NCBI RefSeq assembly: GCF_024502345.1
Contig: NZ_JALDNN010000001.1
DNA from: Escherichia coli
Lineage (GTDB): Bacteria; Pseudomonadota; Gammaproteobacteria; Enterobacterales; Enterobacteriaceae
Length of the DNA stretch: 64,000 nucleotides
Reading direction: 5' to 3' (one strand)
Shown one piece after another: positions 1 to 48,835 of this stretch. The translations under genes and the position numbers were made by a program. How positions within the stretch are numbered: the first letter of the stretch is position 1; every line of letters begins with the position of its first letter. The notes under the pieces are model-generated. The model saw nothing but the letters and a program-made list of their open reading frames with translations, made no database searches and was not told the DNA's origin.

Positions 1-546
1 CATCAGACGGTACGGGACGTTTGAGTTGGTGATGTTTCCGCCATCTACGCCTGTTCCGTACAGGACATGTACAGCCTCATTGCCGTAATCTTTCAGGATC
101 CGCCGAAGATTATCACTGATGGTATCCAGGGCTTCGTCCCAACTTATCCGTTCAAATTTACCTTCACCGCGCTTGCCGACGCGCTTCATGGGATATTTCA
201 ACCTATCAGGATGATTCATCCGTCGGCGGATAGAGCGCCCGCGTAAACACGCTCGAACCTGATGATTACCGTAGACGTCGTCACCTGTCGTATCAGACTC
301 CACCCAGTACACGGTGTCATCTTTCACATGCAAACGTAACAGACAGCGGCTCCCGCAGTTAACGGTGCAGGAACTCCAGACCGCTTTCTCTTCTACCGGA
401 GCCTCTGCCGCCCGGACCATTTGGGAAAATGGCAGAGTGAAAGCACTGCTTGCCAGCGCAAGACTGCCAAGTGCGGAGGTTTTCATCAGACTTCTACGGC
501 TGATTTCAGCCTTCATGAGCGCCTCTGTGGTATGGATTTTCATCAT
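1..546 (-). CDS. ynfF: DMSO reductase-family molybdoenzyme catalytic subunit, N-terminal part only (3' end lies beyond the window start)
   Basis: Minus-strand translation from ATG at 546 gives MMKIHTTEALMKAEISRRSLMK... with twin-arginine Tat motif and N-terminal Cys cluster; paralogous to the adjacent ynfE; RBS-like gagtaATGATG. Confidence 0.85.
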   Translation of the reverse strand, partial: MMKIHTTEALMKAEISRRSLMKTSALGSLALASSAFTLPFSQMVRAAEAPVEEKAVWSSCTVNCGSRCLLRLHVKDDTVYWVESDTTGDDVYGNHQVRACLRGRSIRRRMNHPDRLKYPMKRVGKRGEGKFERISWDEALDTISDNLRRILKDYGNEAVHVLYGTGVDGGNITNSNVPYRLM

Positions 547-603
547 TACTCACTTATTGCTTTTCAAACAAAATGTCATGCCAGAATTTATGGTTGTCGT
601 GGG

Positions 604-3030
604 TTATATTTTTTCGATCTCGACCAGATTAGTGTGCTGCGGGTTTCCCTTCGCCAGTGGTGAAGGGCGCAGAGTGGTTAGCGTATTCACACAGCCGCCA
701 TGGTCGATTTTATCGCCAGACATATTGGCCTCGTGCCAGGCTCCCTGGCCCATAGCGCTAACTCCAGGGAGAATACGTGGTGTTACTTTGGCTGGTAGCC
801 GAACTTCGCCACGATGGTTAAACACCCGCACCATATCGCCGTTGGCAATCCCACGTTTCTGCGCATCTATAGGGTTGATCCACACCTCCTGACGGCAGGC
901 AGCCTTCAGGAGATCAATATTGCCGTAGGTCGAGTGAGTACGGGATTTGTAATGGAAACCAAACAGTTGCAGTGGGAAGGTTCTACGTTCAGGGGAGTTC
1001 CAGCCTTCAAAGGTTGAGGCATAAACTGGCAATGGGCTTATCACTTCATCTTTTTCCAGTTCCCAGGTACGGGCAATTTCCGCCAGCCTGCTGGAATAAA
1101 TTTCAATCTTACCGGAAGGCGTTTTAAGTGGATTTGCCTCGGGGTCGTCACGAAATGCTTTGTAGGCGACAAAATGGCCATTGGGATCTTTACGCTTATA
1201 GATACCCATTTTTTTCAGTTCGTCGTAAGACGGTAACGCCGGATCTTTGGCAAGCATTTTGGCGTACAGATGTTGTAACCATTGTTCCTGCGTGCGACCT
1301 TCTGTGAACTTTTGATAGACGTCAGGTCCAAGACGTTTCGCGACTTCACTCAGGATCCAGTAAATCGGTTTGCGTTCGAATTTTTCGCTGGTGACAGGCT
1401 GGAGGAAAATGAGATATCCCATGTTACCGGCGTAGTCGTTAGGAATAATATCTTCCTGCTCAACGGTCATCAGGTCTGGCAGCAGAATGTCGGCATATTT
1501 TGCCGATGAGGTCATAAAGTTTTCGATGACCACAATCATTTCGCATTTCGATTCGTCCTGCAGAATTTCATGCGTTTTGTTGATGTCAGAATGCTGATTA
1601 ACGAGGGTATTTCCCGCGTAGTTCCAGATGAACTTAATGGGCACATCCAGTTTATCTTTGCCGCGGACGCCGTCGCGGATTGCCGTCATTTGCGGACCAT
1701 GATCGATAGCATCTGTCCAGCTGAAGCAGGAGATTGACGTTTTGACCGGATTATCCAGCACCGGCAGGCGTTCTATGGTAATGGTATAGGTCGATTCACG
1801 CGCGCCACTATTTCCGCCGCTGATGCCGACATTGCCCGTCAAAATAGGTAACATAGCAATAGCGCGTGCAGTCAGTTCGCCGTTTGCCTGGCGTTGCGGC
1901 CCCCAGCCCTGGCAGATATAAGCGGGTTTTGCTGTGCCAATTTCACGCGCCAGTTTGATGATACGGTCTACCGGGATACCGGTAATTTGCGAAGCCCACT
2001 GCGGCGTTTTCGCTGTGTTATCATCACCTTCACCAAGAATATAGGCTTTATAGTGACCATTTTTGGGTGCATCTGCGGGTAAGGTTTTTTCGTCATAGCC
2101 GACGCAGTATTTATCGAGAAAAGGTTGATCAACGAGATTTTCGTTAATCAATACCCAGGCAATACCCGCAACCAGCGCGGCATCGGTGCCCGGGCGAATA
2201 GGGAGCCATTCATCTTCACGACCAGCAGCCGTATCGGTATATCGCGGATCGATAACAATCATTTTGGCGTTCGATTTCTCGCGCGCTTTTTCAAGAAGAT
2301 AAGTGATGCCACCGCCGCTCATGCGGGTTTCTGCCGGGTTGTTACCAAACATCACGACCAGCTTGCTGTTTTCAATATCCGTGGTGCTGTTGCCATCATT
2401 ACTGCCGTAGGTGTAGGGCATGGCACAGGAAATTTGCGCGGTGCTGTAGGAGCCATACTGATTGAGTGAACCGCCGTAGCAGTTCATCAGGCGTTTGACC
2501 GCCGAGGCTGATGGCGAAGAGCGGGTCATATTGCCGCCAACGATCCCCGAAGAGTACTGAATATATACAGCCTCATTGCCATATTGTTCGACGGTTTTTT
2601 TCAGGCTACTGGCGATAGTATCCAGGGCTTCATCCCAGCTAATCCGTTCGAATTTGCCTTCACCGCGTTTACCCACGCGTTTCATTGGGTAATTCAAGCG
2701 ATCGGGATGATTAATACGCCGGCGGATGGAGCGACCGCGCAAACAGGCGCGTACCTGATGGTTGCCGTACTCATCGCTGCCGGTATTGTCAGTTTCCACC
2801 TAGGTCACTTCATTATCTTTAACATGTAGACGAAGTGCACAGCGGCTACCACAGTTGACGGAACAGGCACCCCAGACCACTTTTTCGCGGGCCTGTTGTA
2901 CCGCTGCTGCTGCACTGCGCAGGGTAAACGGCAAAGAAAAACCGCCTGCAGCCAGCGCCAGAGAACCTATCGCGGTAGATTTAACGAGTGTTCTGCGGCT
3001 GATGCCCACCATTCGTTCATTTTTGGACAT
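604..3030 (-). pseudogene. ynfE: DMSO/selenate reductase-family catalytic subunit YnfE, interrupted by an in-frame amber codon at 2802..2800
   Basis: ORF track gives two same-frame contiguous ORFs (2800..3030 Tat signal + Cys cluster; 604..2799 molybdopterin oxidoreductase body) separated only by TAG; paralog in window has TGG at aligned codon. Confidence 0.8.
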
Positions 3031-3228
3031 AACTCACTCCCTGTTCTTTATCGTTATATAAAAGTTTATATATTGAATATTTAGCGCGCTAACAATAGAG
3101 GGAGTCTACCCATTTTGGGTTAAGAATTATTAATCCATATCAATAGAAGGGTATGAGTAATAAGGTGGGATTATGTTGTATGTTCAAATCGCCGGATGTG
3201 TCGTATCCGGCGTTCAGTCGATAATGTA

Positions 3229-4949: not shown

Positions 4950-5291
4950 TTAGGGGGTAATAACGCGGCCAGTTCGACGGTCCAGGCAGCGCAAAGTATT
5001 TGGCTCCCAGTAGGCATTGATGTTGGCGCTTTGCTCACATTTATCGCGGTTATCAAAAGCGGCGTCGGCTTTATCCCACTCTTTTTCAGTGCGTTTATTC
5101 ACTTTCTGACGCAGATTGCGCGTGTCATTCCATTGCTCTTTTTCCATAGCGGCGTGCTGGCGGCTTTGTGCACTGTCGCCAGACTCAATCACCAGTTTGT
5201 TAGTTTCGGCATGAACAGTTGTGCTCAGTGCCAGTGCGCAAGGCAGCAGAAAAGCGAGCAGGCCGATTCGTTTGCTGAGAGTGATTTTCAT
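4950..5291 (-). CDS. ynfB: UPF0482 secreted protein YnfB
   Basis: 113-aa ORF with N-terminal signal peptide; position between speG and ynfA as in K-12. Confidence 0.85.
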
Positions 5292-16782: not shown

Positions 16783-17673
16783 ATGATCAAGAAGACAACG
16801 GAAATTGATGCCATCTTGTTAAATCTCAATAAGGCTATCGATGCCCACTACCAGTGGCTGGTGAGTATGTTTCACAGCGTGGTCGCGAGAGATGCCAGTA
16901 AGCCAGAAATAACGGATAACCATTCTTATGGACTGTGCCAGTTTGGTCGGTGGATTGATCATCTGGGGCCACTCGATAACGATGAATTACCTTACGTTCG
17001 GCTAATGGATTCTGCCCATCAACATATGCATAACTGTGGTCGGGAATTAATGCTGGCTATTGTTGAAAATCACTGGCAGGACGCGCATTTCGCCGCTTTT
17101 CAGGAAGGGTTACTTTCTTTTACTGCGGCATTAACCGATTACAAAATTTATTTGCTGACGATCCGTAGCAATATGGATGTTTTGACGGGATTGCCGGGGC
17201 GTCGGGTTCTTGATGAATCCTTTGATCATCAGTTACGCAACACTGAGCCTCTGAATCTTTATTTAATGTTGTTGGATATTGACCGATTTAAATTGGTTAA
17301 TGATACCTACGGGCATTTAATCGGCGATGTAGTATTACGCACCCTGGCAACTTACTTAGCCAGTTGGACGCGTGATTACGAAACGGTTTATCGCTACGGG
17401 GGCGAAGAATTTATCATTATTGTCAAAGCGGCTAATGATGAAGAAGCATGTCGTGCAGGTGTCAGAATTTGCCAGTTAGTCGATAACCATGCCATCACAC
17501 ATTCTGAAGGGCATATCAACATTACCGTGACAGCAGGTGTCAGTCGCGCATTTCCTCAAGAGCCTCTGGATGTGGTCATTGGAAGAGCAGACCGGGCAAT
17601 GTATGAGGGTAAGCAAACCGGAAGAAATCGCTGCATGTTTATTGACGAACAAAACGTGATTAACCGAGTTTAA
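16783..17673 (+). CDS. dgcZ: zinc-sensing diguanylate cyclase DgcZ (CZB + GGDEF)
   Basis: ORF 16777..17673; ATG 16783 after aaaaaggagtgg gives MIKKTTEIDAILLNL...; RYGGEEF active-site motif. Confidence 0.9.
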   Translation: MIKKTTEIDAILLNLNKAIDAHYQWLVSMFHSVVARDASKPEITDNHSYGLCQFGRWIDHLGPLDNDELPYVRLMDSAHQHMHNCGRELMLAIVENHWQDAHFAAFQEGLLSFTAALTDYKIYLLTIRSNMDVLTGLPGRRVLDESFDHQLRNTEPLNLYLMLLDIDRFKLVNDTYGHLIGDVVLRTLATYLASWTRDYETVYRYGGEEFIIIVKAANDEEACRAGVRICQLVDNHAITHSEGHINITVTAGVSRAFPQEPLDVVIGRADRAMYEGKQTGRNRCMFIDEQNVINRV

Positions 17674-17683
17674 GCTCCGTTTA
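17667..17683 (+). promoter_or_regulatory. candidate PhoP box (aGTTTA-N5-cGTTTA direct repeat) overlapping the dgcZ stop codon
   Basis: Direct hexamer repeat gtttaa at 17668..17673 and 17679..17684 separated by 5 nt; consensus (T/G)GTTTA-N5-(T/G)GTTTA from established knowledge. Confidence 0.45.
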
Positions 17684-17711
17684 ACATTCATTGAGAAAAC
17701 TGATGCTACTG

Positions 17712-17816
17712 TGTCAACGATCCGTTATCAGTGCAGGAAAATGCCTGTTAGCGTAAAAGCAAAACACAAATCTATCCATGCAAGCATTCACCGCCGGTTT
17801 ACTGGCGGTTTTTTTT
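17712..17816 (+). ncRNA. mgrR: candidate MgrR sRNA (PhoP-activated, Hfq-dependent); 5' end approximate
   Basis: About 100 nt between PhoP-like box and a strong intrinsic terminator (ccgccgg-ttta-ctggcgg + T8) at 17791..17816; no ORF; K-12 synteny dgcZ-mgrR-mgtS. Confidence 0.45.
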
Positions 17817-17820
17817 CGCC

Positions 17821-17864
17821 GTCATAAAAATCAGGCCCCTTGTACACAACTGTAACAAGGGGCC
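17821..17864 (-). terminator. intrinsic terminator of mgtS (10-bp stem ggccccttgt/acaaggggcc, U-tract on minus strand)
   Basis: Hairpin 17834..17864; plus-strand aaaaa at 17826..17830 gives U-run downstream on minus strand. Confidence 0.6.
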
Positions 17865-17891
17865 GGTTAGGTGAGGGATTATCTCCGTTCA

Positions 17892-17987
17892 TTAGTCATC
17901 CCATTTGTGGCTGAAATACGCGGCCAGAAAACCAGAAAATAAAATTATTCCCAGTACGGCCATAAAAACATTCATATTACCCAGCAT
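17892..17987 (-). CDS. mgtS: 31-aa small inner-membrane protein MgtS (YneM), PhoP-regulated MgtA stabiliser
   Basis: Hand translation of minus strand: ATG..TAA gives MLGNMNVFMAVLGIILFSGFLAAYFSHKWDD; GGAGG RBS 6 nt upstream; not in ORF track (too short). Confidence 0.85.
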   Translation of the reverse strand: MLGNMNVFMAVLGIILFSGFLAAYFSHKWDD

Positions 17988-18113
17988 TATTTGCCTCCGT
18001 TTATGGTGTGGTGTGTTTCCTCGCTTACCTTAATTTTCATCTCAATGAGAAACATATTAGCAGAGGTAACCTAAACGAAGGCTGAATTAAATTTTTATTG
18101 TGTTCGACTTAAA

Positions 18114-48793: not shown

Positions 48794-48835
48794 GAGTATA
48801 GTTATTCTTATTTCCCTTCTTTTAGAGCTGGCTTG

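Follow-up and report, generated by a model that had tools for sequence, protein, structure and literature searches.

The known small-protein gene mgtS and its overlapping neighbors mgtT and mgrR in an Escherichia coli contig

Organization of the mgtS locus

The window (the whole stretch of DNA analyzed here, 64,000 nucleotides of E. coli contig NZ_JALDNN010000001.1) carries two overlapping small-protein genes, mgtS and mgtT, on its minus strand, and these meet the sRNA gene mgrR on the plus strand. The features of this locus are as follows.

17892..17987, minus strand: mgtS (yneM) coding sequence, 31 codons plus TAA, assigned from its translation, database matches, RefSeq and frame-specific purifying selection
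17994..17998, minus strand: Shine-Dalgarno sequence GGAGG, read from the sequence, 6 nt upstream of the mgtS ATG
17788..17892, minus strand: mgtT, 34 codons encoding MNGDNPSPNRPLVTVVYKGPDFYDGEKKPPVNRR, with an ATG that overlaps the mgtS stop codon (TAATG); from the ORF listing and RefSeq
17824..17864, minus strand: intrinsic terminator of the mgtS transcript, a hairpin (17864..17834) followed by the U-run UGAUUUUUAU (17833..17824), located inside mgtT at approximately codons 10-23
17987..18040, minus strand: CDS58, a reported upstream ORF of 17 codons encoding MKIKVSEETHHTINGGK, with a TAA that overlaps the mgtS ATG (TAATG)
18054..18059, minus strand: putative mgtS -10 element TAATAT (TAATAT, TACTAT or TAAGAT in relatives)
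18072..18088, minus strand: AATTCA-gcctt-CGTTTA, a direct repeat that resembles a PhoP box (putative), with 12 nt between its end and the putative -10 element
17719..17816, plus strand: mgrR, gene for a 98-nt Hfq-binding, PhoP-regulated sRNA, placed from the K-12 annotation via a gap-free alignment
17790..17809, plus strand: mgrR terminator stem, followed by a T-run, from a terminator scan
17667..17683, plus strand: PhoP-box match AGTTTAAGCTCCGTTTA, with 2 mismatches to KGTTTA-N5-KGTTTA, ending 36 nt before the mgrR 5' end

This locus is nearly universal in E. coli: a 601-bp query around the mgtS ORF was matched in 5416 of 5426 complete genomes, and the features annotated in these matches are mgtS, mgtT, ydeE and dgcZ. 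In K-12 MG1655 the gene order is ydeE, mgtS (b4599), mgtT (b4775), mgrR (b4698, on the opposite strand) and dgcZ, and the window has the same neighbors around mgtS. As in the enterobacterial locus generally, mgtS lies downstream of ydeE and is convergent with mgrR; Salmonella-type loci likewise have an MFS gene upstream of mgtS. Over 601 bp, the window and K-12 align without gaps and differ at 8 positions, all of which lie outside mgtS and mgtT. The 31 residues of MgtS, the mgtS-mgtT nucleotides, the Shine-Dalgarno sequence and the terminator are all identical to those of K-12. Upstream of mgtS, the window has A rather than G at 18093 and G rather than C at 18053 (minus strand). The best-matching complete genome, that of strain 90-3040, is collinear with the window in the ydeI-mgtS segment only.

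Some of the loci from relatives were collected by scanning 298 Gb of sequence with a 14-mer from the MgrR core. As a 14-mer is too short for a search of this size, most of the 120 loci returned are chance matches; mgtS is present in seven of them (four Citrobacter, E. albertii, Enterobacter sp. BIGb0383 and a contig identical to E. coli from a 'Caldithrix' metagenome-assembled genome [MAG]). In all, 11 loci were compared with the window: four Citrobacter, E. albertii, Enterobacter sp. BIGb0383, a Salmonella-type locus, three other assemblies and the one E. coli-identical contig. This last contig (SMXE01000224.1, 'Caldithrix sp.' MAG) carries mgtS and mgtT identical to those of E. coli at 179-271 and is most likely an E. 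coli contig that was mis-binned.

Identity and coding status of mgtS

The minus strand of the window from 17987 to 17892 reads ATG CTG GGT ... GAT GAC TAA and translates to MLGNMNVFMAVLGIILFSGFLAAYFSHKWDD followed by a stop codon. A preliminary description, made from the sequence alone, had named this ORF as mgtS, and the protein search that it proposed with the 31-residue sequence returned MgtS/YneM: by exact cluster look-up, MLGNMNVFMAVLGIILFSGFLAAYFSHKWDD is an exact match to the E. coli protein (UniProt MGTS_ECOLI). Two curated family models, NCBIfam NF033842 (80.6 bits; cut-off 35) and Pfam PF22865 (88.2 bits; cut-off 27), align with residues 1-31 of 31. The product has the characteristics of MgtS, namely a length of approximately 31 residues, a single hydrophobic helix and a short polar C-terminal tail (HKWDD). 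RefSeq annotates mgtS on the same interval in K-12 and other strains. The ORF is thus almost certainly mgtS (formerly yneM), which encodes an inner-membrane protein of 31 residues with a single helix, and no observation speaks against this identification. The gene has been annotated since 2008 and has been functionally characterized; mgtS at 17987..17892 is therefore already known and is not a novel gene. The protein belongs to a narrow family: when 1.84 billion cluster representatives were searched exhaustively with HMMER, only 22 matches were returned, all of which are close MgtS variants or truncated or fused calls.

The same sequence is found in the structural database. Chain C of PDB entry 5oqt ('Uncharacterized protein YneM', 31 residues) is 100% identical to MLGNMNVFMAVLGIILFSGFLAAYFSHKWDD; E. 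coli MgtS was co-purified and co-crystallized with a Geobacillus amino-acid transporter and is described as one transmembrane helix (PMC5803215), as had been predicted for this peptide. The structure (5oqt chain C and 6f34 chain C) is an accident, the protein having been carried over with GkApcT from the E. coli expression host. The MgtS helix packs on TM5 of Geobacillus GkApcT, with a cholesterol molecule in between.

Coding status was assessed using the orthologous loci of divergent MgtS variants. In 10 pairwise comparisons across 5 lineages, including comparisons between genera, pN/pS in the mgtS frame is 0.12-0.49, compared to about 1-5 when these 93 nt are read in either of the other two frames. 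The mgtS frame is under purifying selection across genera and is coding. An untranslated open frame arising by chance in an intergenic region might be considered for an ORF this short, as 56 ORFs of at least 20 aa overlap the same 3-kb stretch by chance alone. However, this explanation is contradicted by the frame-specific selection, by the curated family matches, by the presence of the protein, purified from E. coli, in a crystal structure, and by published translation and phenotype data (PMC11429745; 10.1101/511675; 10.1101/2021.06.30.450655). Its probability is close to nil, and it can be regarded as already effectively refuted.

The start codon is similarly well defined. Translation could in principle begin at an internal methionine, as in-frame ATGs exist at codons 5 and 9 and would give products of 27 or 23 residues. 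However, the GGAGG at 17998..17994 (the ribosome-binding site recognized in the preliminary description, which is present 6 nt before the ATG) is correctly spaced for Met1 only, and an AGGAG-like motif is found at a similar distance before the ATG in mgtS orthologues. Met1 is retained in 10 of the 11 other loci, the exception being Enterobacter sp. BIGb0383, in which the start was not resolved. Codons 5 and 9, in contrast, vary: the Salmonella-type protein has Ile at codon 5, which argues against the internal ATGs as alternative starts, and several loci have Ile, Val or Leu at codon 9. The alignment of the family models with residues 1-31 and the 31-residue length of the deposited PDB chain also favor Met1, and an internal start is very improbable.

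The absence of mgtS from the ORF track had been attributed to a length cutoff. This is plausible, as a default 60-aa listing would omit a 31-aa ORF.

Promoter, leader and CDS58

The 126 nt upstream of the mgtS ATG were aligned for 12 loci. A repeat of the form xxTTCA-N5-(T/C)GTTTA occurs at a conserved position; it reads xxTTCA-N5-TGTTTA in the Salmonella-type locus, E. albertii and four Citrobacter species. In the window this repeat has 4 mismatches to the textbook PhoP consensus and so was missed by a 3-mismatch search. A simple promoter/terminator scan did not recover the promoter or the terminator of mgtS. Together, the repeat and the putative -10 element would fit a PhoP-activated mgtS promoter in which the box stands in place of a -35 element, with transcription presumably starting near 18046-18047. 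Direct activation of yneM by PhoP has been reported (PMC3536696).

The leader contains CDS58, the sequence of which is listed in supplementary file 5 of the PIRT-Seq study, with a faint SPA-tag signal (PMC12350097). The C-to-G substitution at 18053 sits just past the putative -10 element and adds an in-frame ATG to this upstream ORF, lengthening the frame in the window to 22 codons with a start at 18055. As this extra ATG abuts the putative -10 element, it is probably not transcribed. E. albertii and Citrobacter lack the CDS58 start codon, while the 12-locus upstream alignment contains a conserved leader block, ATTAAGGTAAGnGAGGAAAC. Because the ATG is missing in these relatives, the block is conserved as nucleotides and not as peptide. 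This pattern suggests that it is an element of the 5' UTR, and not a peptide, that has been conserved. The lack of conservation of the CDS58 start codon bears on the weight due to recent small-ORF annotations of this kind.

mgrR

The mgrR gene, convergent with mgtS-mgtT, extends on the opposite strand across the final 29 bp of mgtT. The Rfam model RF01407 (STnc560) matches the window at 17685..17898 over the full model length with a score of 281.9 bits (gathering threshold 55). Compared with MgrR of K-12 (b4698), the position, convergent orientation and terminator are the same, and the window differs at sRNA nt 4 (17722). mgrR has been reported as a direct PhoP target (PMC3536696), and the convergent PhoPQ-dependent arrangement of mgtS and mgrR has been described (10.1101/2021.06.30.450655). 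The PhoP-box match upstream of mgrR is by itself weak evidence because the pattern is barely enriched across the window: with up to 3 mismatches allowed, the PhoP consensus has 196 matches compared to 166 +/- 12 in shuffled sequences.

mgrR-like genes with terminators, scoring approximately 57 bits and thus only slightly over the Rfam threshold, were also found in Enterobacter cloacae DSM 26481 (4997-5165 of the retrieved locus) and Lelliottia nimipressuralis (2759-2938). Within these two loci there is no mgtS beside the mgrR-like gene, and a larger gene ends directly at the terminator. The occurrence of mgrR without an adjacent mgtS in these species indicates that the two genes are not obligately linked.

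The mgtS terminator

The preliminary description had assigned to mgtS its own terminator hairpin at 17834..17864, and these coordinates proved exact. The hairpin has 13 pairs and one bulge. For its 66-nt context the fold energy is -24.8 kcal/mol (z = -4.0), a value not reached by any of 200 dinucleotide shuffles. The bulge in the stem accounts for the failure of the simple scanner to find it. A GC-rich hairpin followed by a U-run is present approximately 30 nt past the mgtS stop codon in every locus examined, including 10 distinct non-E. coli loci, and the U-run is often more canonical in these loci than in E. coli (AUUUUUUUAC, UUUUUCUUUC). In an alignment limited to nine sequences, both partners have changed in 6 of the 13 pairs, and 96.5% of cells are paired, compared to 27-59% in slid registers. 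For each of the five measures considered, no more than 2 of 500 column shuffles attain the observed value. Term-seq of K-12 provides a curated RNA 3' end at 1622804 on the plus strand (PMC7815308, supplementary file 1). In the window, the sequence of which is identical here, this position is 17829, at the second U of the run and within mgtT codon 22.

The position of the hairpin allows for two other explanations of its conservation. It is wholly within the annotated mgtT ORF and could be maintained as mgtT coding sequence, or it could be a structure of read-through transcripts from the opposite (mgrR) strand, as the plus-strand match to the STnc560 model of Rfam extends across the hairpin, which the model includes as a helix. 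For the mgrR strand, a region of Rho termination has been reported at K-12 position 1622553, approximately window position 18080 (PMC7815308, supplementary file 2), which would mean that some antisense transcripts read through mgtT and mgtS. However, it is only on the mgtS strand that a U-run comes after the stem, as seen in all 10 non-E. coli loci, and the Term-seq 3' end on the K-12 plus strand lies within this run. A coding explanation is also difficult to reconcile with the compensatory changes that keep the stem while the mgtT-frame peptide across the loop varies freely, and with an mgtT frame that ends after anywhere from 8 to 66 codons. It is therefore improbable that the hairpin is primarily something other than the mgtS terminator. 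The hairpin at 17864..17834 with its U-run is a real mgtS terminator. As it lies inside mgtT, full-length MgtT can be made only if some transcripts read through it.

mgtT

The product of mgtT, MNGDNPSPNRPLVTVVYKGPDFYDGEKKPPVNRR, is an exact match to MGTT_ECOLI (b4775) and is annotated in RefSeq; the 34-residue frame and the TAATG overlap are the same in K-12 and the window. NCBIfam contains no HMM for MgtT. The protein was found by initiation-complex ribosome profiling (Ribo-RET) and confirmed by tagging (10.1101/511675), and it was detected again by PIRT-Seq (PMC12350097). Its expression is PhoQP-dependent, it shares one operon with mgtS, it is not membrane-associated, and neither deletion nor overexpression of mgtT produces a phenotype (PMC11429745).

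Conservation of mgtT is uneven. Of the 11 other loci, 10 retain the stop/start overlap with mgtS (URAUG). The lengths of the mgtT frame over these 11 loci are 8, 8, 14, 29, 33, 34, 34, 41, 42, 45 and 66 codons. Outside Escherichia the frame is conserved only in the overlap, in the first 6-7 or so codons and in stem-encoded residues; past the N-terminus, the conserved residues (RPL...KGP) are those encoded by the stem. The 8 codons preceding the hairpin have a pN/pS of 0.38, compared to 1.1-1.4 in the other frames, a hint only given that it is derived from 24 nt and non-independent pairs. Between E. coli and E. albertii, mgtT has 1 synonymous and 4 non-synonymous changes, which are too few differences to gauge selection. 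Outside Escherichia, then, it is the hairpin that is conserved and not the MgtT peptide, and this also bears on the weight due to recent small-ORF annotations.

A speculative role can be proposed for the frame that is coupled to the mgtS stop codon. Ribosomes re-initiating at the mgtS-mgtT overlap would meet the terminator hairpin or pass through it, and re-initiation could then set the share of mgtS transcripts that read through into mgrR antisense. In such a model the main role of the frame might be regulation in cis and not the production of a protein, and translation of MgtS would be linked to MgrR output. The model is based on the overlap in 10 of 11 loci, the low pN/pS of the codons before the hairpin and a frame end that ranges from before the hairpin to far past it. 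We consider it unlikely.

Function of MgtS

The mgtS module can be summarized as a PhoP-box-like promoter, a leader of approximately 59 nt (both the promoter and the transcription start being putative), mgtS, the TAATG-joined mgtT and a terminator inside mgtT, with mgrR convergent to it. The function of its main product is taken from the literature on the identical K-12 protein. PhoQ/PhoP-dependent induction of mgtS has been reported for K-12 (PMC3536696; PMC11429745). MgtS binds and stabilizes MgtA and modulates PitA (10.1101/2021.06.30.450655; PMC10710835; secondary sources). The role given in the preliminary description, that of a PhoP-regulated protein that stabilizes MgtA, agrees with these studies (10.1101/2021.06.30.450655; PMC10710835; PMC3536696; PMC11429745).

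The sequence of events reported for the K-12 protein, and expected in the window strain, is as follows. Low Mg2+ activates PhoQ/PhoP, and PhoP activates the mgtS promoter, with mgrR induced as well. MgtS binds the P-type Mg2+ importer MgtA, which is thereby shielded from FtsH-dependent degradation, and acts also on the PitA phosphate/cation symporter. The effects on MgtA and PitA together raise intracellular Mg2+. MgtR and MgtU of Salmonella, also membrane peptides with a single helix, likewise control how stable P-type Mg2+ ATPases are towards FtsH (PMC10710835). Unlike MgtS, which is protective, MgtR promotes degradation, and no sequence relationship is claimed.

The mgtS locus also serves as a check on the initial scan of the window. 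A reader without tools correctly recognized, in raw sequence, a real gene of 31 codons together with its ribosome-binding site and terminator, but overlooked CDS58, mgrR and mgtT, the last of which contains the mgtS terminator hairpin. That the overlapping known genes mgtT and mgrR were overlooked shows how densely such loci are packed.

Other features of the window

Three IS903B-type (IS5 family) copies are present elsewhere in the window, at 48835-49892 (plus strand), 52247-53304 (minus strand) and 60694-61755 (plus strand). The first two are 100% identical and inverted, and the third differs by a 1-bp indel. The 2354-bp segment between the first two copies contains the 5' part of an autotransporter gene (with an ESPR signal peptide; ORF 49862-51793, minus strand), while the part of the same gene encoding the passenger and beta-barrel is found at 53215-56694 on the plus strand. 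The autotransporter gene looks to have been split by an IS-mediated inversion.
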